Shown in pieces: positions 2,734-38,918 of a stretch of DNA of 64,000 bases. A model generated the notes under the pieces. The model saw only the letters and a list, made by a program, of their open reading frames with translations. It had not been told where the DNA came from and made no database searches. Origin of the DNA: an uncultured Eubacteriales bacterium (lineage in GTDB: Bacteria > Bacillota > Clostridia > Oscillospirales > Acutalibacteraceae); contig CAKSEH010000009.1 of NCBI GenBank assembly GCA_934446475.1, positions 10,353 through 74,352 of the forward strand, in the 5' to 3' direction. The translations under genes were made by a program, and so were the position numbers. Positions within the stretch are counted from its first letter, which is position 1; each line of letters begins with the position of its first letter.

Positions 2734-2795
2734 TACTTTCTACCAGTCCCTCTTGAAAATAATTTTATATCATAATTTATAAGGTTATTACCCTT

Positions 2796-2896: not shown

Positions 2897-2933
2897 TTAC
2901 CTAAAGTTCAAAAACTTAAACTTTAGAGTTTGA

Positions 2934-9100: not shown

Positions 9101-10012
9101 TCACAGCCAGTTATGCTTTTTTAAATACTCATCTATTATTTCGACTCCGAGTTTGGTGTGTGCCGGATCGTGATAATACTCACGGAGTAAAAATGCGTGA
9201 TTTGCCCCTTTAAGAAGATGAAGCTCGCAGTTTAGACCCATTTGTGTCATTCTGCGGTTAAAGAGAACCGAGTGCATAGGATCTACGCAGGTATCGCTGT
9301 CTCCGTGAACTAGAAGTGTATCGCAGTTATTATCTTTTATATGAAGAAGCGGGGAAAGCTGCATTTGTATTTCCTGCTTAGTCATACCCTTTAAGAGCGG
9401 CCTTTCAGAAGATTCGGGGCAGCCCTCACCCCAGCGGTCATTAAGAAGATTCAAAATGGGGTTCACAAGTATCGCAAGTTTTACGGGAAGTCTGTTTTCA
9501 AAGAAAGAATCGGTGGACATAACTCCCGCAAGATGTCCCCCTGCGGATTCGCCGAGCAAAATAACCCTATCAAGATCCGCTCCGTATTCAAGAGCGTGGT
9601 CGGCTATGTAATTCATACCGTCCTGACAGTCACAGCAAAGGTCGATCAGCTCTCTGCCGTTTCCTGCCTTCAAAATTCCGTAGGTCATTATTACGCCTAA
9701 AAATCCTTTGTCGGCATAATATCTGAGCAAATACCCGAGATAATCTCCGGACCATCTTGTCTGATCCTTCATTATATTTCTCGAGCCCCATCCGCCGCCG
9801 TGAATGATTGTGAAAACAGGATATTTCTTTGAGCGGTCGTAATCCTTGGGATAAAAATAGCAAAGCTCTAAATTTTCACCGTCGGGAACAGTCTTATAAG
9901 TTACTATCTCATCCGCTGTGTGTCGGGCAACATACTCCGAAAAGATACTGTCCGGAATATTTTCCTCTGGGATATGCGTATAGACCTTTGGCTCATCGTA
10001 ACACTTCATCAT
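9101..10012 (-). CDS. Alpha/beta-hydrolase esterase (HSL-like; putative carbohydrate or acetyl esterase)
   Basis: 303 aa with the oxyanion motif HGGGW, the nucleophile elbow GESAGG, and downstream HGDSD and H residues. Confidence 0.75.
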   Translation of the reverse strand: MMKCYDEPKVYTHIPEENIPDSIFSEYVARHTADEIVTYKTVPDGENLELCYFYPKDYDRSKKYPVFTIIHGGGWGSRNIMKDQTRWSGDYLGYLLRYYADKGFLGVIMTYGILKAGNGRELIDLCCDCQDGMNYIADHALEYGADLDRVILLGESAGGHLAGVMSTDSFFENRLPVKLAILVNPILNLLNDRWGEGCPESSERPLLKGMTKQEIQMQLSPLLHIKDNNCDTLLVHGDSDTCVDPMHSVLFNRRMTQMGLNCELHLLKGANHAFLLREYYHDPAHTKLGVEIIDEYLKKHNWL

Positions 10013-10023
10013 TGCCTGTCACC

Positions 10024-12507
10024 TCACACCTTTTTTATAACATACGGCTGCTTAGGCTCTGCCTTAAGTTTTAAAACACCGTTTTTAACGTCTACCGTCT
10101 TAATGCTTTCTTTATCCTTTGCGGGAAGTTCGGTAACGGTAACTTTTGTCCAATCGGATGGGAGATCTATTTCAAGTTCCTTACCGTTTCTTGAATAAGC
10201 GTAATACTTACCGCCGCATTCAACCGCAGTTGAATAGTCGGAAGCAATTATTTTTCCCTTGTAAGATATTTCATAAGTCTTTTCGGCGTTATCTACCTTT
10301 ATATATGAACCGCCGCCGTAATCAACAAATGATTTTTGCTCGCTGTAATCAATATCCTTTACTTTCTCATAAGAGAACTTAAGCATCGGGAATGTGAAAA
10401 GATAAAGCTTTTCGACTATTCCTTCATCGTTATCGTCGTACCTGCAGCCGGGGTCTGTTCCGCCTGACACCATACAACTCAGCATTACGTCGTCATTGTC
10501 GCAACTAGCACAGTAAGGCTGAGCGCCGTGCATTGCAAGAGTCGTCATAGGAACAAATTCGTCTCCTGCAAAAAGTTCTCCTTTTTTAATATTTCTGAAG
10601 CCCTGACAAAATCCTAAAAGATCGGCGTACTGAAGCGTAAGTGTTTCACTCGTAACATCAACGCCTCTTTTATTGAATTCCTTTATTATTTCACGCTTCG
10701 CAAGATAGTTTTGCTGAGCGTTTGTGGGATTGTTTTGGTAAAAATCATATCTGCGGTTTTCGCTCGACATAACATCAAGATGGTATGTTCCGACTTCCTT
10801 TATATTAAAGCGGTCAAGGGTTTTTTCTATTCTCTCAACAGCCTTGCCTGACTTTAAATACTTTTCGGGAGCCAATATATATGACATGCCGCCTGCCCAG
10901 AGCCAACCTTTATAAAATTCTCCGTGCTCATCAAATGCCATCATATCATCTGTAAGCTCGTAGTTATCGGAAAGATAGGCGTCATCAAAATTATCGTGGA
11001 AAGAAAGGGAACAATTTCTGCCCTTAAGTTCCTTTTGAAGCGACAAAAACTCCTCCTCTGTTCCTACTCTCGGATTAAACGGAGCAAGATAAGGATACGG
11101 ATATTCAAAGTCATGACCGCCCGACTGCCATCCGACTATATAAAGCACCTGCTTCATATCATCCGTAAGGTCGGCTATTTTTTTAACATATGCCTGAGCA
11201 TCCTTTAATGTGTGCACATACTTCGATTTATATGTGATGGGATTTTCAGGGTTGTACTGAGCGTTATCATCGGTATCAAGCTTATAAACAAAGGTATCCT
11301 TATATGTCTGCTTCGGATTTTTGGGAAGTTTTTTCTGAATTATCCTTGCCGGAGTTTTCCAATCGGCGTTTGAAACCGCATAAAGGTCTATCTCGACGGG
11401 TTCAACGGGTATCGACTTCATACCCTTTTCATCCGCCGGATAGTTTGCCATAAAGCCAGCGGTAAGAACGGCATATTTTTTACCGTTTGCGGCTGTTATT
11501 ACCGACTGAGTAAGCATACTGTCGGCGTCCGCCGCATCAAGGCAGAATGTAAGCCCGCTGTCTCCTGCGGAAATAATATTGCAGGTATCGTAAACAAAGG
11601 TTACAGACTGCGGCATAGCGTCCTTAAGAGCAAATTTTCTTCCGCCGCCGAAAAAGTTTGTGAGAACCGCATCATCACTGCACGAAAAAGCAAGCGGAAC
11701 AGAAAGCTTTATAAACTCATAGCCTTCCTCTGCCTTAACGGATTTTAAAGAAACCGACAGTTTTTCCGCCCTGTCCTCAAGCGATAATCTTGCAGATACA
11801 TATTCGTTTTTAAACGAATACTCCGCTGCACTGTCGCTCAAAGCCGCAAGCCTCGAGTCAAATTCCGTCATAGAAATAAGACGCTGTGTATTGTTCTTAA
11901 TATCACGAATTGTTACAAGGGGTGCTATATCAGGCCATTTTTCTTCCCCGTATCCCATAATCTGAGGATAATCTGCGCCTATTTTGAAATAACCGAGATC
12001 GGTTTGATTTTGCGGTATTATACCTACCGCCGGAGATATTTCATTAAATTCTGTATGCAAAGCTCTTCTTTGTTCCAATAAGCGCTTTCTTCCCCAGCCC
12101 CAGGCAATATCGATTTCGCCTATCTTCTGAGCAAAGGTTTCGGTTTCGTTTGCACCGATTATAGGAATGATTTCTCCCGACTTGGTAACGACCGAAAGCC
12201 TTACCTCAAATGTTGCGCCCCAGGTTGGCGCAACTGTCCACGCACCGGTCGTTGACCACACCTCTCCGCTCTTCCAGACTGCCATATCCGGAAAAGGTTT
12301 CCACATAAAACGAAATTCACAATTTTGATTTTGTTCTCTTCTGTGTCTGCCGCAAAAAATAACATCTGCCGCTATAAACGCATCCTTATTAAGAGAACAG
12401 TCGCCCACGTTTTCAAACTTTGCCGTAACATAAAGTCGGTCTCCGGGGTCCAGATAATTTGCGGAAATATCCGCAGAAATAAGCTTTGCCTTAAACATTT
12501 TTATCAC
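10024..12507 (-). CDS. Large cytoplasmic putative glycoside hydrolase, possibly GH101/GH129-like (family assignment tentative)
   Basis: 827-aa ORF with no signal peptide. The central segment QVLYIVGWQSGGHDFEYPYP...FHDNFDDAY...GTYHLDVMS reminds me of the endo-alpha-N-acetylgalactosaminidase-type TIM barrel. This is from memory only. Confidence 0.4.
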   Translation of the reverse strand: MIKMFKAKLISADISANYLDPGDRLYVTAKFENVGDCSLNKDAFIAADVIFCGRHRREQNQNCEFRFMWKPFPDMAVWKSGEVWSTTGAWTVAPTWGATFEVRLSVVTKSGEIIPIIGANETETFAQKIGEIDIAWGWGRKRLLEQRRALHTEFNEISPAVGIIPQNQTDLGYFKIGADYPQIMGYGEEKWPDIAPLVTIRDIKNNTQRLISMTEFDSRLAALSDSAAEYSFKNEYVSARLSLEDRAEKLSVSLKSVKAEEGYEFIKLSVPLAFSCSDDAVLTNFFGGGRKFALKDAMPQSVTFVYDTCNIISAGDSGLTFCLDAADADSMLTQSVITAANGKKYAVLTAGFMANYPADEKGMKSIPVEPVEIDLYAVSNADWKTPARIIQKKLPKNPKQTYKDTFVYKLDTDDNAQYNPENPITYKSKYVHTLKDAQAYVKKIADLTDDMKQVLYIVGWQSGGHDFEYPYPYLAPFNPRVGTEEEFLSLQKELKGRNCSLSFHDNFDDAYLSDNYELTDDMMAFDEHGEFYKGWLWAGGMSYILAPEKYLKSGKAVERIEKTLDRFNIKEVGTYHLDVMSSENRRYDFYQNNPTNAQQNYLAKREIIKEFNKRGVDVTSETLTLQYADLLGFCQGFRNIKKGELFAGDEFVPMTTLAMHGAQPYCASCDNDDVMLSCMVSGGTDPGCRYDDNDEGIVEKLYLFTFPMLKFSYEKVKDIDYSEQKSFVDYGGGSYIKVDNAEKTYEISYKGKIIASDYSTAVECGGKYYAYSRNGKELEIDLPSDWTKVTVTELPAKDKESIKTVDVKNGVLKLKAEPKQPYVIKKV

Positions 12508-12557
12508 CTATTGCTTTATTTTTTGTGGATTTGATTTTTTGTCGGTTGTCTTTGCCG

Positions 12558-14900
12558 TTAATAGTAAAATTCAATGTTGCGTTCCTTAACCCCGTCCTTA
12601 TGGAGGATTTTGCCGGATTTAACGGTTTGACCGTTTTCGGTATAATATCTTTCTCCCTGAGACGGTTTTAAGGAAATATTATAAACGCAACCTCTGAAAT
12701 TACGCTTAACATAAACTTCTTTCCACTCGGACGGCATACAGGGGTCTATCAGAAGACCGTCATACTCCGCTCTTACTCCGAGCATATACTGTGTAGCCGC
12801 TATATACATCCAGGCGGCAGTTCCGGAAAGCCAGCTTACGTTTGCAAGACCGAAGTGAAGCGATTCGGGTCCCATAATGTTCGAAGAATAAACATACGGT
12901 TCCGCCTTATATCTCCACTCGCCTACCCTTTCAAGCGCCTCCATAGGAAGCAGCTGTTTATAATATTTGTAGGCACGGTCAGCGTTGCCGAGCATACATT
13001 CCGCAATTATTGCCCAGGTGTTTGCGTGGCAGAATATAGCGCCGTTTTCGCCGCAGCCCTTGCTGTAATTTGTAAGGGGGTCTTCTTTTGAGGGATATCC
13101 GTCAATAGAAGGGTCTATTTTCTTTATACCCATAGGAGTATTAAGAATTTTATAAACACTGTCCATCGCTGTTTTGCCCTTGTCGCCTTCGGCTGTGCCG
13201 GAGATAACAGACCAGGTCTGTGAATTAAGCCATATCTTAGCCTGTTCTTCCTTTACGGAACCTAAGAATCTGCCGTTATCCATTATTGCACGGCAGAACC
13301 ATTTACCGTCCCACGCTTTTTCGTTTATAGTCTTTTTCTGCTCGTTATAGGCTTTCTCATATTCCGAACCGTCTTCACCTATAATTTTCGAAAGCTTCTG
13401 CATATCCTTAAGGCAAACGCAGAACTGCATTGCCGTCCATATACTCTCGCCTTTACCCTGACGGCACACTCTGAAGAGCTGATCGTTCCAGTCGGATCTT
13501 AGCATAAGCGGAAATCCGTGAGCACCTATCTTGCTGAGCGTGAATTCTATTGACTTCTTAATATGTTCAAGAACAGTGCCCTCGCCGCCGTCAAAATAAG
13601 AGACCTTATTATAGAGAAAATCGGTACTTCCCTCTTCCTCTATCAGTTTATAAACCGTATGCACTATCCAAAGGTGGTCATCGGAATGAACGGTTGTAAC
13701 CGGATCCCACCCTTCTGTGGGGAAGAAATAATGATTAACGTGACCGTCATTATACTGCTGAGTTAAAAGTAGTTCGATCTTTTCTCTTGAACGCTTGGTA
13801 TCAAACGGTATCATAGAGAGAATATCCTGAGCCGTATCCCTGAAACCCACTCCTCTGAATGTTCCCGTGGCATAATACGAAATGTTTCTTGAAAACCTGA
13901 AGTTGCGTTCCGCCTGATAGGGATTCCAAATATTTATCATTCTCTCGGCATTTTTATCGGGGAGGGTGCAACTGTATTTTGAAAGATATTCGTCCCATTT
14001 CTTATTAAGTCCGTCAAACGATTTTTTGACAAAATCCTTTTCCCTGCAATGAGCGACCGATTTTTCGATTTCTTCGTCAGTCATAGCCGCTCCGAGGAAA
14101 AAGCATACACGCTTTTCTTCGTTCGCCTTAAGCTCAACGTCAAGTTCAAACGCAAAGCAAGGATCGCCGCCGGCAAGAGTTGAGTTCGAGCAGCCTCTTT
14201 CAAGGCCTATGGGGTTTTCCTCACTTCTGTATGTGCCGACAAATTCATCCCTATCGCCGTCGAAAGCGGATATTTTTGCGTCGGACGCAAAATATATAAG
14301 CGGAGTTTCATTCGGACGTGGTTGATTTTCGACGCCGTACTTATAAACAAGCGTGTCGCCGATTGCATAAACACTGAGCTGATGTTTATTGTAACACTGC
14401 CACTGAAGTTCACGCATAAACTCCATCATACCGAGTTCAACATACGGGAACAGCTTTATTTTCCGATCGGTATCCGCTTTAAGGTTCAGTTCCCACACAA
14501 GGCAGTCCTCAAGGTATCCTATGTGAAATCTGAGGTCCGCTTTAAGACCGTTATGTTCGCTCCTGAAAACCGTGTATCCCATACCGTGGGTCGCCGACCA
14601 TTTTTCGGGTTTTGTCGCAACCGGTTCGGCAGTCGGGCAAAATACATCGTTATTATCCTTTATGTATACATAAAATCCGCTTCGGTCTGTAGGAAGATTA
14701 AAAAAGCGGTAATGATTTATTCTCCATATCTGAGGAGAGCGGTAAAACGCAACGCCGCCCCCTGCCTGAGATATCATCGTATGGAATGTGCCGTTGCTCA
14801 GATAGTTCATCCACGGCGTGGCTGTATTATACTTATTTATCGTAATTTCCTTTTTATCATCAGAAAAAACATAACACTGTTTATTTGACTCGTTTTTCAT
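12558..14900 (-). CDS. GH94-family glycan phosphorylase (cellobiose/chitobiose phosphorylase-like)
   Basis: 780 aa. The N-terminus TPWMNYLSNGTFHTMISQAGGGVAFYRSPQIWRINHYRFFNLPTDRSGFYVYIKD parallels the cellobiose phosphorylase N-terminus. A catalytic-region motif, LRSDWNDQL, is present. Confidence 0.8.
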   Translation of the reverse strand: MKNESNKQCYVFSDDKKEITINKYNTATPWMNYLSNGTFHTMISQAGGGVAFYRSPQIWRINHYRFFNLPTDRSGFYVYIKDNNDVFCPTAEPVATKPEKWSATHGMGYTVFRSEHNGLKADLRFHIGYLEDCLVWELNLKADTDRKIKLFPYVELGMMEFMRELQWQCYNKHQLSVYAIGDTLVYKYGVENQPRPNETPLIYFASDAKISAFDGDRDEFVGTYRSEENPIGLERGCSNSTLAGGDPCFAFELDVELKANEEKRVCFFLGAAMTDEEIEKSVAHCREKDFVKKSFDGLNKKWDEYLSKYSCTLPDKNAERMINIWNPYQAERNFRFSRNISYYATGTFRGVGFRDTAQDILSMIPFDTKRSREKIELLLTQQYNDGHVNHYFFPTEGWDPVTTVHSDDHLWIVHTVYKLIEEEGSTDFLYNKVSYFDGGEGTVLEHIKKSIEFTLSKIGAHGFPLMLRSDWNDQLFRVCRQGKGESIWTAMQFCVCLKDMQKLSKIIGEDGSEYEKAYNEQKKTINEKAWDGKWFCRAIMDNGRFLGSVKEEQAKIWLNSQTWSVISGTAEGDKGKTAMDSVYKILNTPMGIKKIDPSIDGYPSKEDPLTNYSKGCGENGAIFCHANTWAIIAECMLGNADRAYKYYKQLLPMEALERVGEWRYKAEPYVYSSNIMGPESLHFGLANVSWLSGTAAWMYIAATQYMLGVRAEYDGLLIDPCMPSEWKEVYVKRNFRGCVYNISLKPSQGERYYTENGQTVKSGKILHKDGVKERNIEFYY

Positions 14901-29215: not shown

Positions 29216-30483
29216 AGGTCCCAATTTTTGAACTCCCCTTAAACGGAGTCGAAAAGTTGGGACCTTCATATTTTATCAATGCTTATTAAACTCCGTTTCT
29301 ATTTGAAACGGAGTTTTTATGTTTAATTTTCTATGGGGACGTTCCTCGTTATAAAAGTGCAAGTATTCCTCCATTACTAATTTTAACTCCTCGGGGGAAG
29401 AATATAGATTGTGATATATAGCTTCTTTTTTCAACGAGTGGAAAAACGCCTCGCAAACAGAATTGTCGTATGGTTTGCCCGGAGTTGAAAAAGATTGTTT
29501 CACCTTTTTACTTTTTAGATATTGCCGGAAAGCAAACGAGGTATATTGCACCCCCTGATCACTGTGAAACATTAAGCTTTTGGGTTTCCCTCGTTTTTTA
29601 AAGGCTTCTTCAAAGGTTTTCATTGTAAGCGTGGTATCCATTACATCGGATATCCCGTAAGAAATCGCTATTCTTGAAAATAAATCAAGAATTATACAAA
29701 CATAAAAGTATTCGTTTCCAACTTTTACATATGTAATATCAGAAACCCAAACTTGATTTGGTCGGCTTTGTTCGAATTCGCGCATTAAATAATTTTTGAA
29801 ATAATAACGTGGAATTGGCTTTTTGTGTTCAGCCATATATTTTGGCTTTTCAACCTCTAAGCCCATTTCTTGCATTAATCGGCAAACCCGTTTTTCGCTT
29901 ACCTGATATCCCATTTCTTTTAATTTGTATTGTATTGGCTTTCGACCAAAACGCTTTTTACTATCAAAAAATACCTGTTTGATTATGGGTTTTAAGAATT
30001 CATCTTCTTTATCGTGTTGGGTCAGCATTTTTTCGCAGCGTTTTCTGTTGTAATATGTACCACGTGGAAGGTTTAACGCCTCGCATAATACGTGTATAGA
30101 ATACTGACCTTCCAGTTCTTTGATGGCCGACATCTTTTCATCAATGGATGCATTCACACCGCATGAAGCTTTACGCACCACTTCCAACATATATTCTGTT
30201 TTCTTTAAATGTGCTTGTGACTGACGAAAATTTTTATATTTTGAACTGCCATTGATAATAAGATCGTGTTCCTTGCTGTAAAGTTTCCTCCAATCAAACA
30301 ACGAGGTTTGAGAAATTCCAAATTCTTGTATTGTTTCTTCAATTATGTGATTTCTTTCATAAAACTTTACAACCGTCTCCTTGAATTTTTGCGTATAAAT
30401 TTTAGGTGACATAAAAACTCTCCTTTTGATATAGTCTAAATATAATTATATCAAAAAACAGGTGCAGCTGAAAAGTTGCACCT
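29216..30483 (-). mobile_element. IS3-family insertion sequence (boundaries approximate)
   Basis: A single transposase ORF flanked by imperfect terminal inverted repeats (aggtcccaatttt at 29216 versus the reverse complement of aaaagttgcacct at 30471-30483). It starts 7 bp after the tRNA 3' end. I could not recognise a clear target-site duplication. Confidence 0.55.
29276..30412 (-). CDS. IS3-family transposase (HTH + DDE/rve integrase core, fused single ORF)
   Basis: 378 aa with an N-terminal HTH (ETIQEFGISQTSLFDWRK), then PNQVWVSDITYV...FHSDQGVQYTS...PYDNSVCEAFF...YNEERPH, the typical rve domain pattern. Confidence 0.88.
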   Translation of the reverse strand: MSPKIYTQKFKETVVKFYERNHIIEETIQEFGISQTSLFDWRKLYSKEHDLIINGSSKYKNFRQSQAHLKKTEYMLEVVRKASCGVNASIDEKMSAIKELEGQYSIHVLCEALNLPRGTYYNRKRCEKMLTQHDKEDEFLKPIIKQVFFDSKKRFGRKPIQYKLKEMGYQVSEKRVCRLMQEMGLEVEKPKYMAEHKKPIPRYYFKNYLMREFEQSRPNQVWVSDITYVKVGNEYFYVCIILDLFSRIAISYGISDVMDTTLTMKTFEEAFKKRGKPKSLMFHSDQGVQYTSFAFRQYLKSKKVKQSFSTPGKPYDNSVCEAFFHSLKKEAIYHNLYSSPEELKLVMEEYLHFYNEERPHRKLNIKTPFQIETEFNKH

Positions 30484-30500
30484 GTTAGTAAAATGTTGTA

Positions 30501-30791
30501 TTACCACTCAATCCATTTCATATTTGATTCTGCTTCCCAAAAAGACTTTCCTTCAATTATGGAATCATTTAAAAGTTTTTCCATACATTCATTTTGTGTA
30601 TTACCTTCACATCTGTAAACAGTATCAACATAATGGTCGTTTTCATCCCACAAATGAATTTCGAAAGAATAAACTTTTTCATTAGGGTTATATATTAAAC
30701 CGTGGAAAAAGTATTTTTTTCCGTTATAAATAACGGCTTCTTCTTGAAATGTTATTTTATCAATGAATTCTGACACATTTCCGTCTATCAT
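30501..30791 (-). CDS. Hypothetical small acidic protein (immunity-protein-like; speculative)
   Basis: 96 aa; ATGA start/stop overlap with the upstream ORF; no motif I recognise. Confidence 0.5.
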   Translation of the reverse strand: MIDGNVSEFIDKITFQEEAVIYNGKKYFFHGLIYNPNEKVYSFEIHLWDENDHYVDTVYRCEGNTQNECMEKLLNDSIIEGKSFWEAESNMKWIEW

Positions 30792-31162
30792 ATTAAAATC
30801 CCCCTAAAAAACTTTTTGTACTTTTTGTATTCTTTCTCTGTTAAAGGTCTGGCTTTGCGGTTAGAAAAATCATCCGGCTTATATTCGTGGACGTGCAATA
30901 CGGGCTTTCGTGAAGGGTCAATGCTCATTTCGGGATGATAGGCGATTTCAAACCGAAGGAAATGGTTTTTATCATATTCTCGATACATTTTGAATTTTCC
31001 GTCCGGATGCAATTGAATATAAGCTGTGCTGGAATGTGCTTCTTCGGGAAGGGCTTTTCGTCCGGGTTTTCCTTGCAAAACCTTTACACCTTTAATTTTA
31101 TCTACGGTATCATAGGTATATGCCACATTATTACCACTTGCAAAAGTTCCTCTTCCGCCCAT
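30788..31162 (-). CDS. Hypothetical protein (possible toxin-like partner of the 96-aa ORF; speculative)
   Basis: I place the start at MGGRGTFASGNN (ATG 31162), 1 nt after the stop of the upstream gene. Contains the motif HVHEY. Function unknown. Confidence 0.5.
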   Translation of the reverse strand: MGGRGTFASGNNVAYTYDTVDKIKGVKVLQGKPGRKALPEEAHSSTAYIQLHPDGKFKMYREYDKNHFLRFEIAYHPEMSIDPSRKPVLHVHEYKPDDFSNRKARPLTEKEYKKYKKFFRGILI

Positions 31163-31163
31163 A

Positions 31164-31787
31164 TCAGCGCACCACCTTTCGTGACGCCATATAATCAATA
31201 GTAATTATATTTCCTTGCATTTGAGGAAAGGGTGTACCAAAACATATTACCTTCGATGGTTGAATTCTTTTAAGCATTTCATTATAGCCGCGCAAAAATT
31301 GAAATTTTGCTTTTTTACACCCTACCATCCCTATGGCTACAATACTGCCTTGCTCAACACCGTCAAAGCAAAATTCAAAACTGCGAGCATCGCTCCAACT
31401 AACTGTTGGTATAACAGTTATCCCTTTGCTTTGCCAATAAGCGCCTACCCAACGGTTTTTTGCAACGCTTTCAAGTTGACGCCAAAAATCCATATCCGCA
31501 TATGTAGAAAAGTCGGGTGAAAGCAAAAAAGCATACTGTGAATATCTTTTGAAGGTTCTTTCGGGATTATCATAAATCCCGTTAAAGCGATAATCATCAA
31601 CGAAAAAATGTACGCCTTTTTTCTTGTTTTCTTCTTTGTCGTTTGTCCGCGTGTCGGAACATGCTACTAACATAATATCGTTGGTAGAAAGTTCTTGTTT
31701 TCGGATAATGGGGATCCCCCACTTACCGCCAGAATTAAAATTGTTACGTATGAATAGAGGGTTGTCCCTCATAGCTTTACTGGTCAT
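31164..31787 (-). CDS. DUF4417-like protein (phage-associated family; assignment from memory)
   Basis: The segment GVHFFVDDYRFNGIYDNPE...LLSPDFSTYADM...NRWVGAYWQSKGITVIPTVSW matches my recollection of DUF4417. I place the start at MTSKAMRDN, 1 nt after the stop of the upstream ORF. Confidence 0.55.
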   Translation of the reverse strand: MTSKAMRDNPLFIRNNFNSGGKWGIPIIRKQELSTNDIMLVACSDTRTNDKEENKKKGVHFFVDDYRFNGIYDNPERTFKRYSQYAFLLSPDFSTYADMDFWRQLESVAKNRWVGAYWQSKGITVIPTVSWSDARSFEFCFDGVEQGSIVAIGMVGCKKAKFQFLRGYNEMLKRIQPSKVICFGTPFPQMQGNIITIDYMASRKVVR

Positions 31788-31788
31788 A

Positions 31789-31998
31789 TTATGACACCTC
31801 CGTAGAATTATTTGTTTTTTGCATAATATTTTCGCAGCAGAAAGTGGCACATTTTGTGCGATTTCTGTTGCATTTTTCTCCGGAATGTGCTAATATGTAT
31901 TTACCAAGATACGAATGGCAACATTCGGAGAGAGGCATTGTATTGATTGCGCCAACAATCTTTACAGTGCTTTTTCTTTTTGTTTTACTTACAAGCAA
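31789..31998 (-). CDS. Small Cys-rich hypothetical protein
   Basis: 69 aa with 7 Cys (CCHSY...EKCNRNRTKCATFCC), tightly packed in the same co-directional gene string. Confidence 0.35.
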   Translation of the reverse strand: MLVSKTKRKSTVKIVGAINTMPLSECCHSYLGKYILAHSGEKCNRNRTKCATFCCENIMQKTNNSTEVS

Positions 31999-32021
31999 TT
32001 CACATCACCACCTTTATTTTA

Positions 32022-32545
32022 TTAGTATTTCAATCGTTTTTCAGCAGCCGCTTTAGAAACGCCGAAATTTTTCATAAGTTCTTTTGCTGACATTCCATTA
32101 GATGCTTCATAAGGCATCATGACCTCCCCGGCAAGTGCCATAACAATCCATTCAAGCCTTCTATAACAAGGAGTTTCTTTTGTTAGCCTTCTTGAAAAAA
32201 TAGGTTTAAACCCTATTTTGTCAGCGAATGGATGCATTATTTCGTGCATTATATGCATACGGTGACCGCCGGTCTTTTTTTATATGCGCCCATATAAACA
32301 GATTCTTTAATCTGTATGAGGTAACCGTCTTCTGTTCTTTCACATTGAGCCGGAACATTGCCAGGCAATACATCATTGTATACTATTTCATACCTAACAT
32401 CCTCGAAACCTTCCAACTCGGGTAATCTGTCAAGTAATACAATAGGATCAATGGACTCATCATTGGTGAATCCACAAATAGAACGAAACAATTTTGCCCA
32501 AAGGCGCAATTCATTTCTGCTTGTGGCTCTGGTTTCGTAATCCAT
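32022..32545 (-). pseudogene. ImmA/IrrE-family metallopeptidase split by a frameshift at an A7 run
   Basis: The two track ORFs (32249..32548 and 32022..32258) are the N- and C-terminal parts. The downstream part carries HEIMH (HExxH). Adding one A to the A7 tract (T7 on + at 32275-32281) yields the continuous sequence ...GAYKKKTGGHRMHIMHEIMHP... Confidence 0.7.
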
Positions 32546-32907
32546 CAATTATCCTCCTTATCAAGAAGTTTAATGATGGCTGCAGCGGTATCCTCATCGA
32601 GTTTTTCAAAAGAACGCTGAAACTGAACCGCCAGTCTGCGCTGGGTGTTGGTGGTAGATACCAAATTGATTTTAACTTGCGTTTTTGACTGTTCGACCGC
32701 TTCGAACAACTCTGCTTGTTCTTCTGCATTCAGATTATAATGCGCAATGAGAATGGGAATCCATTCTTCAGGAACATTTCTTTTTCCGCTTTCTACCGTA
32801 GATACAAAAGGAAGTTTAACGTCAAGCAGCTTTGCAGTATCCCCCATAACCTCGTGGTTTTTTACGCGCTGAATTCTCATAAATTCGCCAAATTTTGTGT
32901 AACTCAT
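32545..32907 (-). CDS. XRE-family HTH transcriptional regulator (ImmR-like partner of ImmA)
   Basis: MSYTKFGEFMRIQRVKNHEVMGDTAKLLDVKLPFVSTVESGKRNVP. AAAGGAG lies 7 nt before ATG 32907. The stop overlaps the ImmA start (TGATG). Confidence 0.8.
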   Translation of the reverse strand: MSYTKFGEFMRIQRVKNHEVMGDTAKLLDVKLPFVSTVESGKRNVPEEWIPILIAHYNLNAEEQAELFEAVEQSKTQVKINLVSTTNTQRRLAVQFQRSFEKLDEDTAAAIIKLLDKEDN

Positions 32908-33141
32908 ATCGCCACTCCTTTCTATCACGAAAATAATTATATCATCAGTTATGCAAATTGTCAATAACTAATTTAATCATTTTCTGGTTAATGAAACAAG
33001 GCTTTTATTTTTGAGTTTCATCTTTTTCGGTGCTACGAGACATAAAAGCATTCCGCACGGGGTGCTTTTTCTTTATGCCGTTTTTCGACCGTTTTCGACT
33101 GAGGGATATGAGCCCACGGGTAAATAATTCGAATGGTGAAA

Positions 33142-33493: not shown

Positions 33494-33550
33494 AAGCAAT
33501 ACAAAAAATAAAACAGGAGATATAAAACTTGCGTTTTACATCCCCTTAGT

Positions 33551-34009
33551 TCATTTTATTACAGTATGCTTTATTTTCGAAAGCAGCGGGTAAAGCTTAC
33601 ATTTCCAAACAAATCTTGCAGGATAAAAAAGTCTCATAAAAAAAACATATATCTTATATTTAAAGCTCGTTTCAGGATCGCAATATTTACCGTTTCTGTA
33701 AAAGGCTTTCATTACACCGACAATTTGCTTGTCCGTTATACCATATTCTTTTCGATATGTATTATCGCCTCTTATGATATATTTGCCGTCCCGTGTTATT
33801 TTAATAATTCTGTGCAGAACAAGCTTATCCCTTGCCGGCACATCATAAGCAACAACATCGTGCTTTTTAAGAGGCCTGTCAACCTTTTTTATTATAACTA
33901 CATCCCTGTGCTGCCTGAGCATCGGGCGCATACTGACGCCTTCTGTAAGCACCGGAGCTTCATCAGATATTTCAAGGCAATGCGCCACATCCATTTTACT
34001 TTCAGGCAT
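33551..34009 (-). CDS. S24/S26-family serine peptidase (signal-peptidase-like; candidate leader peptidase)
   Basis: 152 aa with the GVSMRPML nucleophile motif, LVLHRIIKI and RGDNT, plus a hydrophobic C-terminal tail. TAATG overlap with the PqqD-like gene. Confidence 0.65.
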   Translation of the reverse strand: MPESKMDVAHCLEISDEAPVLTEGVSMRPMLRQHRDVVIIKKVDRPLKKHDVVAYDVPARDKLVLHRIIKITRDGKYIIRGDNTYRKEYGITDKQIVGVMKAFYRNGKYCDPETSFKYKIYVFFMRLFYPARFVWKCKLYPLLSKIKHTVIK

Positions 34010-34275
34010 TACTCAACAATACCTTTGCTTAGAAGCCTTGCTGTGAATTCTTTTACAGTTTCCCTTATTTCATTTTCGGGTGTATCGGCATAATCTTTTT
34101 TCATAGCTTCAACTATTTCATCCTCGGTAACATCATTTTTCAGCATACCGAAAATATACGCTCCGACATCATTCATTTTAATAAAACCTCTGAAATTTTC
34201 AAGGCTATCCCCTACCGGAATCGCAACCTGTTTATCTGCAACCGTATTTATAACAAAATTATATTTAAGTTTCAT
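34009..34275 (-). CDS. PqqD-family peptide chaperone (RRE-type)
   Basis: 88 aa. The pattern ...VADKQVAIPVGD...IKMNDVGAYIFGMLKNDVTEDEIVEAMKKDY...EIRETVKEFTARLLSKGIV matches stand-alone PqqD-like proteins. Confidence 0.65.
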   Translation of the reverse strand: MKLKYNFVINTVADKQVAIPVGDSLENFRGFIKMNDVGAYIFGMLKNDVTEDEIVEAMKKDYADTPENEIRETVKEFTARLLSKGIVE

Positions 34276-34396
34276 CTTGTTTGACTCCTCATCATTTTAA
34301 AAATCAGAATGTTAACACAATATTCTACACTCATTATAATGGCTTTTGGTCACAAATTTTCTTTGAAAATTTGTCAATGTCCATTGCAATGAATAT

Positions 34397-34477
34397 GGTC
34401 AAAATTAAATTTGTGGAAATTTAATTTTGACCAGGCCGATAAAATCGGCCTGTCGAAACAATTTTTGGTGTTTCGAC
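34397..34477 (-). other. Three back-to-back perfect hairpins between the HprK-like and PqqD-like genes
   Basis: 14-bp stem ggtcaaaattaaat/atttaattttgacc (34397-34432), 7-bp stem aggccga/tcggcct (34433-34451) and 9-bp stem gtcgaaaca/tgtttcgac (34452-34477). No U-tracts. Confidence 0.6.
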
Positions 34478-34513
34478 ATTCTATAATCATTATAAAACAT
34501 TCGGGATACAAAA

Positions 34514-35239
34514 TCAATTAAAAATTGTATCATAGGCCACTCTTGCCGCCTCAGGTTCCATATTGCAATGGATTATCCAGAGGTTGCAGGAGGTGAGCAG
34601 GCGGTCTATCAAGGCTATTGTGTTTGCCGCAGCAAGCGGATCGCTCGGCATATAGACCTGATTGAGAATTCTGTCTACAGCGTCTTTTTGATCAATTTTT
34701 TCAACATAGTTTTTTTCACTGCGCTCTATAAAGCAGATATGCTTAAGCGGAGTTCTCATATTGCAACCGTAGCTTTCTTTGCCGTTCCACGGGGTGCCAT
34801 AAGCATAAGGCGTTTCGGGCTCGTCATCAAAAAATCTGATAATAGGTTTATCACCGTTAACGATAGTCATTTTATTGCCTAAAAGCTGTTGCCAAAGGCG
34901 CATATGGGTTGTTTTTCCGGTTCCGCTCTGTGCTGCAAAGGCAACTCCTTCACCCTGTACATCTATACATACGGAATGAAGGACAAAAGCATTAAAGGCA
35001 GGTATAATATTGCTTAATTTGCGAAAGTTTGCAGCAATTTTAAAAGTTGACGGGTATATCTTCTCTATCTGATCCCCATATGTTTGTTCCTCATATAAAA
35101 CTTCTTCATCTGTGACCTTTAAAGTAATATCCGCACTATCAAAATCACTAAGATAATCACGCATAACCCTATTAAAATTTTTCATATCTGTCTCAAAGGA
35201 AATATTAAACCCTGCTATTTTACATTTAACAATATTCAT
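34514..35239 (-). CDS. P-loop protein, HprK-related kinase-like (tentative)
   Basis: 241 aa with Walker A QSGTGKTT in the context GVAFAAQSGTGKTTHMRLW. Its size and its position next to the rSAM and PqqD-like genes resemble the HprK-like kinases of RiPP loci. Confidence 0.45.
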   Translation of the reverse strand: MNIVKCKIAGFNISFETDMKNFNRVMRDYLSDFDSADITLKVTDEEVLYEEQTYGDQIEKIYPSTFKIAANFRKLSNIIPAFNAFVLHSVCIDVQGEGVAFAAQSGTGKTTHMRLWQQLLGNKMTIVNGDKPIIRFFDDEPETPYAYGTPWNGKESYGCNMRTPLKHICFIERSEKNYVEKIDQKDAVDRILNQVYMPSDPLAAANTIALIDRLLTSCNLWIIHCNMEPEAARVAYDTIFN

Positions 35240-35253
35240 AAACTATCCTGCCG

Positions 35254-36633
35254 TTAAAAGTTGTTTTTTTCTTTTTCAAGTCTTAAAAATTCGTTGTAAA
35301 TGTTTCTTAATTTTGCATTCATTCGATTAATTATTGCCATTTTATCTGCCTCATCGCAATGATTCGGTACTCCCGTGCAACACTTAAGCGACATACACAT
35401 AGAACGCATTTCGCAATCTTCACATACAGAGGCAATATTTCTGCGTTCTTTATACTTTTGAATTTTTGCGTAATCAATTTCGTCACTATAAATACTGCCG
35501 TAAAAATCGCTGTCAACAAAATGCTCGCACTTGCCTAAATGACCGTCCGGCACTATCATAACAGAATTATCACTGCATGCCATACAAGTATTCGGAGAAG
35601 CAAAAGCTTTCGGGAGATTCTTAATAGGCACCGGCGGCATATTTTCATCAATAAAATTTTGAAGTTTAACGGAATTCTCAATAAGCCTATGGCGGTCTGC
35701 AACATCACGGTTCTTTATTTTTGAACAAGTATCCTCAAACAGGCGCACAACATAAATATGGCAGTTTGAATATTCCTTAAATCTATTTACCAATAACTTC
35801 GAGAGCTGAAAAAGGTCCTCGGCATTGTGCTCGTCCATATTAAGCCTTACACTTACCTGAATTCCTGCCGCAAGTGCATTTTCTATATTATTTAAAACCC
35901 TTTTAAAGGGACTTGGATCATTCTTATAAACATAATTTTTTGTTTTATTATATATTTCTTCTGTGCCGTCAAGAGTTATTTGCATCATATCAAGTTTCCA
36001 TAAATCAACGGCTTTTTTGATTACTTCATCGTCAAGTAAATATCCGTTTGTTACCATTTTCGAAGAAAAAATAATGTTTTTTGCAGCTAAATCACTTGAT
36101 ATTATATCAATAACTTTCATATTTACAAGCGGTTCTCCGCCAAACCACTGAATTCTTATCTTATTTGCGCCCTTTTTATCAATAAAATCAGCTACATCGT
36201 GCGCCGTATTCTCAGTCATATTAGAAATCTTTGCGCCCTGCTCGAAGCAATAAAAGCATCTGGCATTACAGCCGGTTGTTGTGAGAATAACAAAATGTGA
36301 AAGCGGCGGATTTGTATAGATATTCTGAATTGCAAGCCGAGCTTCTATCAGATCGGATGCAAACTTTTTATCATTAAAATCTTCAGGAACCAAAAAATAG
36401 CTTTCAATAAGATAACGAATGTCCTGATTGGATAAATCAGGGTGTTTAAGTTGCTTAATTTCATCCGATGTAAGAAATATCAACTCATAAGTAACTGTAT
36501 TTACGAGCAAAACTCCGCCCTCAACCGGGCATTGACTTAGATAAAATGATTTTCTGTAGCCTTTATTCTCATCGATTTTTTGTTTGTCTAAAATTTGTTT
36601 TACGATATTTGTTTGTTCGTAAATAAGTTTCAT
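35254..36633 (-). CDS. Radical SAM/SPASM-domain peptide-modifying enzyme with an N-terminal extension
   Basis: CNARCFYC (CxxxCxxC) at about aa 125-133. Cys-rich C-terminus: CMACSDNSVMIVPDGHLGKCEHF...CEDCEMRSMCMSLKCCTGVPNHC. I prefer the ATG at 36633 (MKLIYEQ) over the track's TTG at 36645. Confidence 0.85.
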   Translation of the reverse strand: MKLIYEQTNIVKQILDKQKIDENKGYRKSFYLSQCPVEGGVLLVNTVTYELIFLTSDEIKQLKHPDLSNQDIRYLIESYFLVPEDFNDKKFASDLIEARLAIQNIYTNPPLSHFVILTTTGCNARCFYCFEQGAKISNMTENTAHDVADFIDKKGANKIRIQWFGGEPLVNMKVIDIISSDLAAKNIIFSSKMVTNGYLLDDEVIKKAVDLWKLDMMQITLDGTEEIYNKTKNYVYKNDPSPFKRVLNNIENALAAGIQVSVRLNMDEHNAEDLFQLSKLLVNRFKEYSNCHIYVVRLFEDTCSKIKNRDVADRHRLIENSVKLQNFIDENMPPVPIKNLPKAFASPNTCMACSDNSVMIVPDGHLGKCEHFVDSDFYGSIYSDEIDYAKIQKYKERRNIASVCEDCEMRSMCMSLKCCTGVPNHCDEADKMAIINRMNAKLRNIYNEFLRLEKEKNNF

Positions 36634-36733
36634 AGTTTTCACCAAGCATTATATATTATAAGGTGTTATAAAAACATCTGCTATTTCAAAATTCGAATAT
36701 AAAATCAATATTAAAAAATGCAACAACTAAGGC

Positions 36734-36770
36734 AAAAGCCCCGCAAAAAACGGGGCTTTCATTTTTTAAA
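36734..36770 (-). terminator. GC hairpin with U-run between the precursor ORF and the rSAM gene (attenuator-type terminator)
   Basis: On the minus strand: aaagccccg ttttttg cggggcttt tgcc. It begins about 10 nt after the precursor stop. Confidence 0.6.
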
Positions 36771-36779
36771 ACCATTGAA

Positions 36780-36896
36780 TTAATAGCGACCAGCCATCTG
36801 ATCCAAATCACTCGGGCACTGAAAATCACAACACTCTTCACCCGAAACTGTAACAACATCGTTCTTTAACTCAACGATCTCTAAATATGCCTTCAT
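36780..36896 (-). CDS. Candidate RiPP precursor peptide (38 aa)
   Basis: Below the track cutoff; hand-translated as ATG AAG GCA TAT ... CGC TAT TAA = MKAYLEIVELKNDVVTVSGEECCDFQCPSDLDQMAGRY. AGGTG lies 6 nt upstream of the ATG. The ORF sits directly upstream of the rSAM/SPASM gene on the same strand. Confidence 0.6.
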   Translation of the reverse strand: MKAYLEIVELKNDVVTVSGEECCDFQCPSDLDQMAGRY

Positions 36897-36938
36897 CTTG
36901 CACACCTGCCTTATTATGTAATCAATTTAAATATAATA

Positions 36939-38792
36939 TTATTTTGCACTGTAAGCTCTGAATGAGATACCGAGTTTAATAAGTGCTGTAGAAATTGCAC
37001 CTATAGAAGAATCAGACATAGCAGCACCTAAATAAGACTCAACGCTATAGGTTACAGAATATACCTTTTCACCGTCATATGTTATCTCAACAACAAGATC
37101 CTGGTTGCCATCCTGAATGCCTATCTGGTCAAACTTAAAAGATATCCAAGAGCCTGAACGCGTTATAGCACCGCTGTCAACTGTGAATGTTACATCGTAA
37201 GGAGTTTCTGTTCCGTCACCTGCAACCTGAGTATAAGTAACCTTAAAGCTCAGCTTGCTGAGATCTAAAACGTTTCCGCTGTCTTTAACACGATATGTGA
37301 TATACGGCGCTTTACCAATCGAAACAGAAGTTCTGACCTGATGTCTGTTTGAGCTTGCAGAACCAAAATCTGAATTGAATGATTGGTTGGTATTTATTGT
37401 GTTATAAGAATCTACAGATGCAGTTGCTTCGCTTATATCAAAGCCTTCAATTATGGAAGGTGCTTTCGCAAGATCAGAATCGGCATAATTTGCAGCCATA
37501 CCCTTAACGGACTCATCACCAACAATTAAAGTGTCTGTAATCAAGGTGCGAAGTTTTGCATTAGATGCCTGTTCTTCAAATACATTTTTCAAATATGTTG
37601 CAGGAGAAATAGTGAATGTTTCCGAGACTGCAACAAGATTGCCGCTCTCATCATATGCTCTTAACATATAGTTAATATCAAGGCCAAGTTCGTAAAGCTG
37701 AATATCGGTATATGTATAAGACCTCATTGAGCCGGCAGCAGCAAGTTCTGATTTGTTCTTAACTATTTCCTGAGGATTCGGATCAATATTAAGTGTTGCA
37801 CTGTCATACTTCTGGGGAATGATAACAAGCTCCATATCGGCATACGAGTTCAATACTGTATTAGTAACACGGAAAGCCATCTGGAGAGAACTTGCACCAT
37901 AACCGAGAGAAGCGCTTCTGAAAGTTAACGAAGTATCAACTACGGGTTCAGTGCTCTGCTTTTTATATCCGCACACGGTGCAGGTATTATTTTCATCAAA
38001 AGTATGATCAGCTGTTGTGCCGTCTATAGTAACGCTGCACCTACTGCAAACTTCTGCATGCTGTGTATCGCTTATAGAGGTAACAACGCCATCGTGACCT
38101 AAAGCATCGATAGGAGTAGTCCACTCAGCGCCGCAATCGGGGCAAGTGTGTCTCTCTTCACCGGGCTCGGTGCAAGTGGGTTCAACTACTGTTGTGGTGG
38201 TCGCATTGCCGTGGCTGCAGTTCGTTCCTGCTACGACTTTTTGATTTGTTTCAGCAGCTTCAACCTGATTTATAAGGCCATTTTCATTATTGTTTGCACA
38301 GGGGAATGTGAGAAGGTTCTCATCACCTAAAGTGCCATCATCTCCGACAGTACCCTGATCGGCTGCCTGGATGTGGGTGAGGGTGATATAGTGCTGGGTT
38401 GAATCATCCTTAACAACCTTGATGCTGATAGTTGCAGCCGTTATAGCAGACAAATTCGTTACATCAACACGCTTAACAAGCATCGTAAGGGTTGTTCCGC
38501 TTACTTTTGACTCAACGCTGAGGTTTTCAGCATTATTGTCAACAGCGGTTACAGCATCTTCATCACTGCTGAGAGCATAGCCTGTTAGCTCTGCTTTAGC
38601 AACAGCCACAAGATATCCTGTTTCGGAATCAATGTGGAGGGTTGCGGTGTCATACGCACCGGATGCAACAACATCAGCATCAAACGCATATGTACCGTTT
38701 GGCTCGGCTGCCATTGAGGTTAAACACATTGCCGGGCAAATGACAATGGCTACCGCAAGGACAACTGCGAGAAGCTTGGGAAATTTTCTCAT
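36939..38792 (-). CDS. Secreted protein of unknown function with a Cys/His zinc-ribbon-like insert
   Basis: 617 aa with signal peptide MRKFPKLLAVVLAVAIVICPAMCLTSMAAEP. The central segment is CSHGNATTTTVVEPTCTEPGEERHTCPDCGAEWTTPIDALGHDG...HAEVCSRCS...HTFDENNTCTVCGYKK. Confidence 0.75.
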   Translation of the reverse strand: MRKFPKLLAVVLAVAIVICPAMCLTSMAAEPNGTYAFDADVVASGAYDTATLHIDSETGYLVAVAKAELTGYALSSDEDAVTAVDNNAENLSVESKVSGTTLTMLVKRVDVTNLSAITAATISIKVVKDDSTQHYITLTHIQAADQGTVGDDGTLGDENLLTFPCANNNENGLINQVEAAETNQKVVAGTNCSHGNATTTTVVEPTCTEPGEERHTCPDCGAEWTTPIDALGHDGVVTSISDTQHAEVCSRCSVTIDGTTADHTFDENNTCTVCGYKKQSTEPVVDTSLTFRSASLGYGASSLQMAFRVTNTVLNSYADMELVIIPQKYDSATLNIDPNPQEIVKNKSELAAAGSMRSYTYTDIQLYELGLDINYMLRAYDESGNLVAVSETFTISPATYLKNVFEEQASNAKLRTLITDTLIVGDESVKGMAANYADSDLAKAPSIIEGFDISEATASVDSYNTINTNQSFNSDFGSASSNRHQVRTSVSIGKAPYITYRVKDSGNVLDLSKLSFKVTYTQVAGDGTETPYDVTFTVDSGAITRSGSWISFKFDQIGIQDGNQDLVVEITYDGEKVYSVTYSVESYLGAAMSDSSIGAISTALIKLGISFRAYSAK

Positions 38793-38889: not shown

Positions 38890-38918
38890 ATTATAACATC
38901 AGGGGTCTTAAAAATCAA
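38890..38918 (-). promoter_or_regulatory. Promoter for the 617-aa secreted protein gene
   Basis: On the minus strand: TTGATT (38918-38913), 17-nt spacer, TATAAT (38895-38890). This leaves a leader of about 95 nt. Confidence 0.5.

Follow-up and report, generated by a model that had tools for sequence, protein, structure and literature searches.

A short open reading frame beside a radical SAM/SPASM maturase gene of a gut Clostridia bacterium as the probable precursor of a new family of Cys-rich modified peptides

The window analysed here is a stretch of 64,000 nucleotides (nt) from an uncultured Eubacteriales bacterium of the family Acutalibacteraceae (GenBank assembly GCA_934446475.1, contig CAKSEH010000009.1, positions 10,353 to 74,352, forward strand). 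On its minus strand a very short open reading frame (ORF) precedes a gene for a radical S-adenosylmethionine (rSAM) enzyme with a SPASM domain, and the question raised by the locus is whether this ORF encodes the substrate of that enzyme, as proposed in an earlier note made from the sequence alone. With good confidence, the ORF is the gene of a precursor of a peptide made on ribosomes and then altered by post-translational modification (RiPP), which would undergo thioether-type maturation by the rSAM enzyme, lose its leader, and be separated from the enzyme genes by a leaky hairpin.

The precursor gene occupies positions 36780..36896 (minus strand), from an ATG at 36896-36894 to a TAA at 36782-36780. 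Its 38 sense codons and stop (117 nt in total) encode a peptide of 38 amino acids (aa), MKAYLEIVELKNDVVTVSGEECCDFQCPSDLDQMAGRY, as read from the sequence and from relatives; the minus-strand sequence read across the region is ataaggcAGGTGtgcaagATGAAGGCA. A Shine-Dalgarno-like AGGTG (36903..36907, minus strand) lies 6 nt (tgcaag) before the ATG, and 146 nt separate the TAA from the ATG of the rSAM gene at 36633 on the same strand. The length, start codon, AGGTG motif and distance to the rSAM gene given in the earlier note were all verified on this strand. Comparable GGTG/GGAG motifs stand 5-10 nt before the precursor start in all 11 related loci inspected. The ORF listing also offers a GTG at 36905, which would give a peptide of 41 aa; the ATG is preferred because of the position of the Shine-Dalgarno-like motif and the N-termini (M-K-A-Y...) of about 100 relatives.

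A genome scan with the rSAM protein identified an orthologous locus (L001; related loci are cited by such numbers below) in a Clostridia metagenome-assembled genome from buffalo cecum. Its rSAM enzyme is 72% identical, and a 39-codon ORF, MKAYLEIVELKNDIITTSGEEECCDYGCPTDGDQMEGIW, is found at the equivalent position. Between the window and L001 the DNA of the ORF is much more conserved than both flanks. The comparison of synonymous with nonsynonymous change that had been suggested as a check was made by Nei-Gojobori counts and turned out in favor of a coding sequence: the proportions of synonymous (pS) and nonsynonymous (pN) differences are 0.66 and 0.17 for the ORF (dN/dS ~0.12), indistinguishable from those of the rSAM gene (pS 0.68, pN 0.18), and 0.45 and 0.09 for the leader alone. 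The exact peptide of the window (P0004) is recorded in NCBI, ENA and Logan and is called as a gene on 9 contigs from human-gut metagenomes; independent gene calls of the ORF are present in several metagenome assemblies. The peptide matched no Pfam family and, at E<=0.01, no NCBIfam family. A search of Rfam with a permissive threshold gave nothing above the gathering score at the precursor region, the sole overlap being a chance-level rimP-leader match over the hairpin described below (29 bits vs 47). Judged by its substitution pattern, the ORF is under protein-level selection and is a genuine protein-coding gene.

Relatives of the peptide were collected with a profile of 9 peptides from the subclade of the window, its alignment headed by the 41-aa version with GTG start; a search of about 5.8 billion proteins yielded 106 clusters of relatives at E<=0.01. 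A metagenome scan with the rSAM alignment gave at least 457 relatives, and 80 loci, mostly from rumen and gut, were retrieved; the counts over 86 loci given below include many truncated loci. An iterated hidden Markov model (HMM) of the leader, run over 18,001 stop-to-stop segments of 18-130 aa in six frames of the 86 loci, produced 45 matches at E<0.01 in 38 loci, all 45 on the strand of the rSAM gene, and additional weak matches had an identical layout. On these comparative grounds the precursor-type ORF is genetically tied to the adjacent rSAM/SPASM maturase gene on the same strand.

The peptide is divided into two parts. Codons 1-18 (36843..36896, minus strand), MKAYLEIVELKNDVVTVS, constitute a Cys-free leader region with an alternating hydrophobic/acidic LEIVEL stretch, and codons 19-38 (36783..36842, minus strand), GEE-CCDFQCPSDLDQMAGRY, constitute the linker and a core that carries the core-class motif with its invariant Cys. 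The N-terminal 21 residues contain no Cys and all 3 Cys lie within the C-terminal half, the distribution that had been noted from the translation. The leader, MKAYLEIV..[DE][IV][IV]T[TAV]S, is near-invariant and common to 94 of the 106 relatives. It terminates at T-x-S (Ser18) and is followed by a mostly acidic linker of 1-9 residues and then by the CC motif, which places the leader/core junction proposed earlier within 1-2 residues of the correct position. Length variation among the relatives is confined to the linker, and the frame is always kept.

Behind this leader the cores are hypervariable. The core class of the window comprises 54 distinct sequences (window included) of the form C-C-[DE]-[WYFM]-G-C-[PG]-[TSND]-D-x-D-Q-[MIAL]-x-G-N-[YW]. 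All three Cys are invariant in it (54/54), and the conservation of the CCxxxC pattern, for which an alignment had been proposed, is thereby complete. Also invariant is the D/E at +2 (54/54); D+8 (50/54), D+10 (47/54), Q+11 (49/54), G+14 (53/54) and the terminal aromatic residue (50/54) are nearly so. Alternative cores behind the same leader include CPCDFGC[PG]TDxDQLxE, TCEC[YF]..GFVS.N.AEDDC, ..PTCPSELPEE and others. Over 105 cores the composition is 13.5% Cys, 26% Asp plus Glu and 0.5% Lys plus Arg; exactly three Cys are present in 74 of the 105, and 0-1 Cys in 11. The leaders contain 0.1% Cys, with Val, Ile, Leu, Glu and Lys abundant, and the change of composition at the leader/core boundary is abrupt. 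RiPP precursor families are recognized by just such a constant leader followed by diversified cores, and the notion of a hidden leader/core precursor serving the adjacent rSAM enzyme is in this respect borne out.

The subclade of the window has a short form of the leader, M-K-x-x-L-[ED]-I-V. Distant clades from rumen and gut (L013-L085) have a longer leader, ..KK[FY]E.P.[ML]EVV.[FL]..., with up to 3 precursor paralogues and sometimes two tandem rSAM or two PqqD genes per locus. Many loci carry 2-3 paralogous precursors that differ in the core, and L002 has an ABC exporter and a nucleotidyltransferase-like gene at the locus. Eleven peptides (window plus 10 diverse relatives) matched no Pfam or NCBIfam family; faint leader resemblances were seen to sactipeptide and RaS-RiPP leaders (StsA, E 0.049; SSH; tryglysin). 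A full-text search of an available literature collection for the leader strings returned nothing relevant. One subclade precursor, P0010 (MKIELEIVRFNSEDVITASSGGACECESCEVIFDGDVL; L097, 7001-7117), abounds in public data, with 266 blocks of the collection indexed for it, and its C-terminal FDGDVL is loosely similar to the DD(I/V)LF tail of orphan Flm/Ohk precursors. The Flm/Ohk rSAM family is also among the top matches of the window rSAM enzyme.

The rSAM/SPASM peptide maturase (459 aa; 35254..36633, minus strand) matches Pfam Radical_SAM (PF04055) at 2e-16 and 61 bits against a cutoff of 29.5. Its CX3CX2C motif, CNARCFYC (residues 122-129), is invariant in four homologues. The SPASM region has the full set of Cys (C350/C353-x10-G364-x4-C369; C404-x2-C407-x5-C413...C418/C419; C426), and C350, G364, C369, C404, C407, C413 and C419 are invariant among the homologues aligned. 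The top NCBIfam matches are peptide maturases, all below cutoff: TIGR04463 (126 bits), CefB (Cys-every-fifth; 114), Clo7bot (103) and FlmE/OhkG (100), with the geopeptide maturase and PapB also among the matches below cutoff. A single-sequence search of the PDB was uninformative. With a family profile the top PDB match was 5WGG (CteB; 5e-16; alignment over residues 111-413), and SkfB ranked fourth. CteB is a ranthisynthase whose N-terminal RiPP recognition element (RRE) holds the leader as a beta-strand (PMC8326336). In freyrasin six Cys-to-Asp C-beta thioethers are formed, and QhpD forms Cys-Asp as well as Cys-Glu links (PMC8326336).

Three further genes on the minus strand follow the rSAM gene. 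The first encodes an HprK/ScmC-like P-loop protein (241 aa; 34514..35239), so described from conserved motifs and a profile match. The motifs are H-x-S...SGxGK[ST]T...DDKP...YGTPWxGK, with SGTGKTT as the P-loop of the window protein, and the profile matched HPr kinase 1KO7 (3.5e-4) and then PEPCK (2.6e-3) in the PDB. Pfam Hpr_kinase_C was weak in 5 of 9 members, always below the gathering score; weak ScmC and HprK matches in NCBIfam and a faint match to PF27840 (ScmC) were also obtained. The second gene encodes a peptide chaperone of the PqqD family, an RRE (88 aa; 34009..34275; PF05402 1.1e-11, 45.3 bits vs cutoff 23.4). The third, whose start overlaps the PqqD stop (TAATG), encodes a signal-peptidase-like protein of the S26 (SipW/Sec11) type (152 aa; 33551..34009). 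This protein has no Pfam match and reaches 35.5 bits with TIGR02228 (8e-9), below the cutoff of 51.85. In 12 homologues of 18-56% identity its motifs G-x-S-M-x-P, L-H-R-[IV] and G-D are invariant (G24, S26, M27, P29, H66, R67, G81, D82), which we take to be the Ser/His signature of SipW/Sec11-type signal peptidases. On this sequence evidence it is best described as a divergent S26 relative. Among the 86 loci, PqqD is present in 65, the HprK-like gene in 41 and S26 in 28.

The spacer between the HprK-like and PqqD genes (34276-34513, minus strand, 238 nt) contains three successive stem-loops: gtcgaaaca/tgtttcgac, aggccgat/atcggcct, and a 17-bp palindrome, ggtcaaaattaaattt.... At the same position L095 has a 595-aa YcaO gene and L001 an inserted 117-aa ORF. 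A YcaO remnant was sought in this gap and in the whole window and none was found. The YcaO genes of relatives lie at 11502-13325 (minus) in L090, 4040-5827 (plus) in L094 and 9338-11125 (plus) in L095.

Between precursor and rSAM gene lies an intrinsic-terminator-like hairpin (36733..36761, minus strand), a GC-rich stem of 11-12 bp with a loop of 5-7 nt followed by UUUUGCCUU. In the scan it reads AAAGCCCCG-uuuuuug-CGGGGCUUU, then UGCCUU, with 12 pairs of which 6 are G-C; the GC-rich stem-loop and succeeding U-tract are those of an intrinsic terminator, although the U-tract is short (UUUU-G-CC-UU). The fold has -19.7 kcal/mol (z = -3.4), equalled by 0 of 200 dinucleotide shuffles. The GC-rich stem and U-run described in the earlier note are real; the spacing of about 10 nt from the stop codon given there is not, since the stem begins about 19 nt and its GCCCCG core about 25 nt past the stop. 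A stem-loop with a U-rich tail is found 5-35 nt past the precursor stop in 11 of 11 independent subclade loci, with unrelated stem sequences (loci considered: window, L001, L006-L009, L010, L011/L097, L012, L064, L090, L092, L094, L095 and L096). The L001 stem is GCUCCC/GGGAGC vs GCCCCG/CGGGGC in the window; both arms are altered, so the stem is maintained by compensatory substitutions. When stems were trimmed so that basal A-U pairs do not absorb the U-tract, a strict terminator rule held after 9 of 42 distinct precursors family-wide vs 0.85% of random windows. The folds show no evident antiterminator pairing that overlaps the ORF. A regulated classical attenuator was rejected for want of any evident alternative pairing; a role as attenuator in the looser sense of a partial terminator is plausible from the sequence, and the conserved terminator-like hairpin is probably leaky.

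The proposed course of events is as follows. The beta-strand-prone leader, LEIVEL..DVITTS, would dock on an RRE, which could be the rSAM enzyme's N-terminal domain, following the example of CteB, the stand-alone PqqD, or both. The rSAM/SPASM enzyme would then join the three invariant Cys thiols to carbons of acceptor residues, the likeliest being the conserved acidic positions D/E+2, D+8 and D+10 (D24, D30 and D32 of the window peptide), to give a tricyclic ranthipeptide-like thioether peptide about 17-20 residues long. The HprK-like protein may add phosphate or serve as an ATP-dependent helper; phosphorylation of the peptide, suggested by this gene, is only a possibility. PqqD, translationally coupled to the S26 peptidase, would present the leader for a cut after the small residues of T-x-S (-3/-1 rule). 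The signal-peptidase-type cleavage at the leader/core junction that the earlier note envisaged may thus occur, the cassette itself encoding an S26-like enzyme. The hairpin would end or stabilize most precursor transcripts while a fraction reads through, so that precursor mRNA would exceed enzyme mRNA. For the mature peptide, roles as a signal, as an antimicrobial or as a ligand of the secreted protein encoded next to it (described below) are conceivable.

Several observations weigh against this explanation. Several of its steps are ones that we infer, namely the formation of thioethers, the choice of acceptor residues, the phosphorylation and the position of the cleavage. The best curated score of the rSAM enzyme is 126 bits vs 525, and since it lies below all curated cutoffs it might catalyze a different reaction from its nearest relatives. 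L006-L009 carry just the upstream protein, the precursor and the rSAM gene and lack HprK, PqqD and S26, which are therefore dispensable in some loci. A YcaO gene joins or neighbours the cassette in three relatives, so that the chemistry differs within the family, implying extra azoline- or thioamide-type chemistry on some members. No exporter or immunity gene is present in the window cassette, and an antimicrobial role thus fits poorly. Finally, L092 has a TTGCAA-17-TATAAT site with TG extension between hairpin and rSAM gene, and consensus promoters precede PqqD in L090, L096 and L092, which makes the cassette transcriptionally modular; with such promoters the hairpin may be the plain terminator of a separate transcription unit.

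This last possibility is the alternative that survives best. The hairpin would fully terminate a transcript of the upstream secreted protein and the precursor, and the enzymes would be expressed from their own promoter or promoters with neither read-through nor attenuation. In its favor, besides the sites just named, the precursor ATG lies 35-61 nt past the upstream gene in most subclade loci, which suggests co-transcription, and the 146-nt spacer of the window is AT-rich with a perfect TATAAT some 20 nt ahead of the rSAM start. Against it, the next gene begins just 56-75 nt past the precursor stop in L010, L011/L097 and L095; this space is mostly occupied by the hairpin and leaves no room for a separate promoter, so the downstream genes must be transcribed through the hairpin and read-through is favored. 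A scan of the window found no sigma-70-like site on the minus strand from 36780 to 36633. Promoter-like matches are not enriched relative to shuffled sequence, which makes the L092 site weak evidence, and the short U-tract of the window hairpin is typical of leaky terminators. Complete termination is accordingly held to be possible but rather unlikely, and a leaky hairpin is preferred.

A second alternative accepts the precursor and disputes the chemistry. The enzyme would modify the C-terminal G-N-Tyr/Trp, as MftC acts on the Val-Tyr of MftA and PqqE on PqqA, or form an aromatic C-C or C-O crosslink in place of a Cys thioether, and the product could be an intracellular, cofactor-like molecule. 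The conservation of the terminal aromatic and of the Gly two residues earlier agrees with this, as does the rSAM enzyme falling under every curated cutoff. Pyrroloquinoline quinone (PQQ) and mycofactocin loci, in the same layout, combine a small peptide with an rSAM/SPASM enzyme, a PqqD-like chaperone and a peptidase and lack an exporter, and the window cassette likewise has no transporter. However, other core classes that accompany close rSAM homologues end in ..AE, ..DDC or ..PEE, with no aromatic, and still retain Cys and acidic residues. The three Cys are counted here as the only fully invariant residues of the core; the nearest enzyme families are maturases of Cys-rich peptides and the nearest solved structure is the thioether synthase CteB. 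The PqqD equivalog model TIGR03859 gives 17.4 against a cutoff of 46. Such chemistry is improbable beside Cys thioether formation.

It is more doubtful still that the ORF is a ribosome-stalling regulatory leader peptide that senses charging of Cys-tRNA and is no enzyme substrate, and we consider this very improbable. Tandem Cys codons near the end of a short ORF, a terminator-like hairpin about 19 nt on and an operon next to it give the locus a superficially trp-like appearance. Yet amino-acid conservation extends over the whole peptide and is strongest in its N-terminal 18 residues, whereas the cores vary so far as to hold 0-1 Cys in some relatives. The paralogues with different cores found at many loci and the lack of evident antiterminator pairing with the ORF end also speak against stalling, and the genes downstream encode peptide-modifying enzymes, not enzymes of Cys metabolism. 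That the frame is open by chance, within a non-coding spacer or a structured RNA, as its 38 codons, AT-rich intergenic setting and lack of a Pfam or NCBIfam match might suggest, is effectively refuted by the comparative data, namely the low dN/dS, the 106 protein-level relatives with in-frame length variation, the absence of an Rfam family at threshold and the strand agreement of all 45 HMM matches.

The gene immediately upstream of the precursor encodes a secreted cohesin-like multi-beta-sandwich protein of 617 aa (36939..38792, minus strand), whose stop lies 42 nt before the precursor ATG. Its parts are a signal peptide, an N-terminal beta-sandwich of cohesin-like type, repeats rich in Cys, and a C-terminal domain of about 335 aa that is conserved. 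The Pfam Cohesin model scores above threshold in L090 and L011, precomputed matches to it exist for 11 of 38 database homologues, and Foldseek matched cohesin modules to the upstream protein. The C-terminal domain, predicted by AlphaFold2 with a local confidence score (pLDDT) >90, gave no specific Foldseek match, only generic beta-sandwiches. The protein family is small, and several of its clusters agree with precursor clusters in the length of their longest contig. The C-terminal domain, which belongs to no known family, seems to occur in these cassettes alone. Every subclade locus has a homologue of the 617-aa protein directly upstream of the precursor, across at least 5 unrelated genomic contexts, and it is kept in L008, where HprK, PqqD and S26 are missing. 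By this conservation the 617-aa protein probably belongs to the system. No other protein accompanies the precursor and rSAM pair so constantly, and on this basis a functional partnership can be imagined in which the mature peptide, crosslinked and acidic (D-x-D-Q...G-N-Y), is a ligand, cap or anchor for a cohesin-type scaffold (a small dockerin-like RiPP), or the protein is an extracellular carrier or receptor; the idea is speculative and, as it stands, has a low probability. In L095 the gene immediately upstream of that for the cohesin-like protein (117-4562, plus strand) encodes a protein of 1481 aa that has F5/8 type C domains and matches Dockerin_1 weakly; this dockerin-like neighbour may be a coincidence in an organism of the cellulosome type.

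A promoter-like TTGATT-17-TATAAT site with TG extension (38890..38918, minus strand; a consensus match only) lies upstream of the 617-aa gene and is a candidate promoter for a transcript of this gene and the precursor. Directly after the S26 gene, the last of the cassette, is a terminator-like hairpin of 14 pairs (33515..33546, minus strand). The two elements bracket a six-gene module. Directly downstream of the cassette (29276-32964, minus strand) are an XRE-type helix-turn-helix gene, small ORFs, a DUF4417 gene and an IS3-family transposase (rve domains). The surroundings of the cassette are unrelated in L086, L090/L096, L092, L095 and L097, and given these differing contexts it may move as a unit.

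With this locus the radical-SAM RiPPs of gut and rumen Clostridia gain a defined precursor family that had not been described before and that has about 100 sequence clusters in the subclade of the window. Three invariant Cys and three acidic positions lead to a testable prediction, a tricyclic thioether peptide, and the variety of cores borne by one leader suggests a scaffold diversified in nature, of possible use in engineering. For annotation, the lesson is that ORFs of fewer than 60 codons beside rSAM/SPASM genes are worth calling. A hidden precursor beside such a gene will not surprise a specialist; the unusual part is the conserved partner protein. It is uncommon for a RiPP cluster to be paired constantly with a secreted cohesin-like protein, and this hints at a role beyond killing competitors. 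If the peptide and the cohesin-like protein do act together, they would represent a new functional class of RiPP and not another bacteriocin.

Among known systems, SCIFF/thermocellin (CteA/CteB) and freyrasin (PapA/PapB) likewise have a short Cys-rich precursor beside an rSAM/SPASM maturase in Clostridia. Among solved structures CteB is the closest to the family of the window enzyme, and the PapB and SCIFF-maturase models match it below threshold. With Asp near Cys, the acidic core of the window peptide is reminiscent of the Cys-Asp thioether motifs in freyrasin (PMC8326336). In contrast to the SCIFF precursor, the window peptide has three Cys, not six, an unrelated leader and unrelated core motifs, and no match to the model at E<=0.01. 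The window enzyme scores 49.6 vs 425 with the SCIFF maturase model TIGR03974 and 82.9 vs 340 with that of PapB, and the cassette adds to the SCIFF layout an HprK-like protein, a stand-alone PqqD, an S26 peptidase and a secreted cohesin-like protein. The antiSMASH rule for ranthipeptides relies on the SCIFF precursor model TIGR03973 (PMC13289728) and would for this reason not label the window cluster. Assignment to the ranthipeptides, with their C-beta or C-gamma thioethers, is supported indirectly, by the three invariant Cys, the three acidic positions and the kinship with CteB and PapB.

The same combination of genes is found in SynChlorMet (SCM), with the HprK-like ScmC, the PqqD-like ScmD and the rSAM/SPASM proteins ScmE and ScmF. 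The window proteins score far below the corresponding models (ScmC 16.4 vs 125, ScmD 19.1 vs 100, ScmE 46.1 vs 400); SynChlorMet has two rSAM genes against one here, where the host is a gut bacterium of the Clostridium class and the precursor family is clearly identifiable. Sactipeptide operons such as that of subtilosin (sboA-albA-G) also begin with a small precursor gene, behind which lie a stem-loop and then the genes for an rSAM thioether synthase and for processing; excess precursor mRNA brought about by a hairpin placed before the enzyme genes is a recurrent design in RiPP and lantibiotic clusters. The window precursor has no sequence relation to those of sactipeptides besides the weak resemblance to the StsA leader (E 0.049). 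By analogy with the split B proteins of lasso peptide clusters (PqqD-like B1 and protease B2), a stand-alone PqqD appears here, too, to be coupled to a leader peptidase. As in paeninodin-type lasso clusters with HprK-like kinases, an HprK-related protein is present, its role as a kinase being putative. The window PqqD gives weak matches to lasso PqqD models; the peptidase here is a Ser/His enzyme of the S26 type, not the transglutaminase-like Cys protease of lasso systems, and there is no lasso cyclase.

TIGR04463, CefB, Clo7bot and FlmE/OhkG are peptide maturases encoded beside short precursors, and the window rSAM enzyme scores 4- to 6-fold under their cutoffs; for the equivalog TIGR04463 it reaches 126.1 bits vs 525. 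The Flm/Ohk clusters belong to Bacteroidota and have precursors of the DD(I/V)LF type, their rSAM step itself being uncharacterized (PMC12703449). Identity of the window system with FlmE/OhkG was rejected, this being a separate family of Bacteroidota. With respect to PQQ and mycofactocin, no PqqE or MftC model is among the best 25 matches of the rSAM enzyme, and the peptide matches neither PqqA nor MftA at E<=0.01. Of the general features of rSAM/SPASM RiPP systems, the CX3CX2C motif, the SPASM Cys, an adjacent precursor with leader and core, and a PqqD-like RRE are present, and modification of the peptide by the enzyme is predicted. The cassette fits none of the curated families examined (SCIFF, TIGR04463, CefB, PapB, SCM, PqqD/PQQ) and would work like a sactipeptide or ranthipeptide cluster, and it is for these reasons filed as a new family of a familiar kind, within the rSAM/SPASM-modified Cys-rich RiPPs of gut Clostridia.

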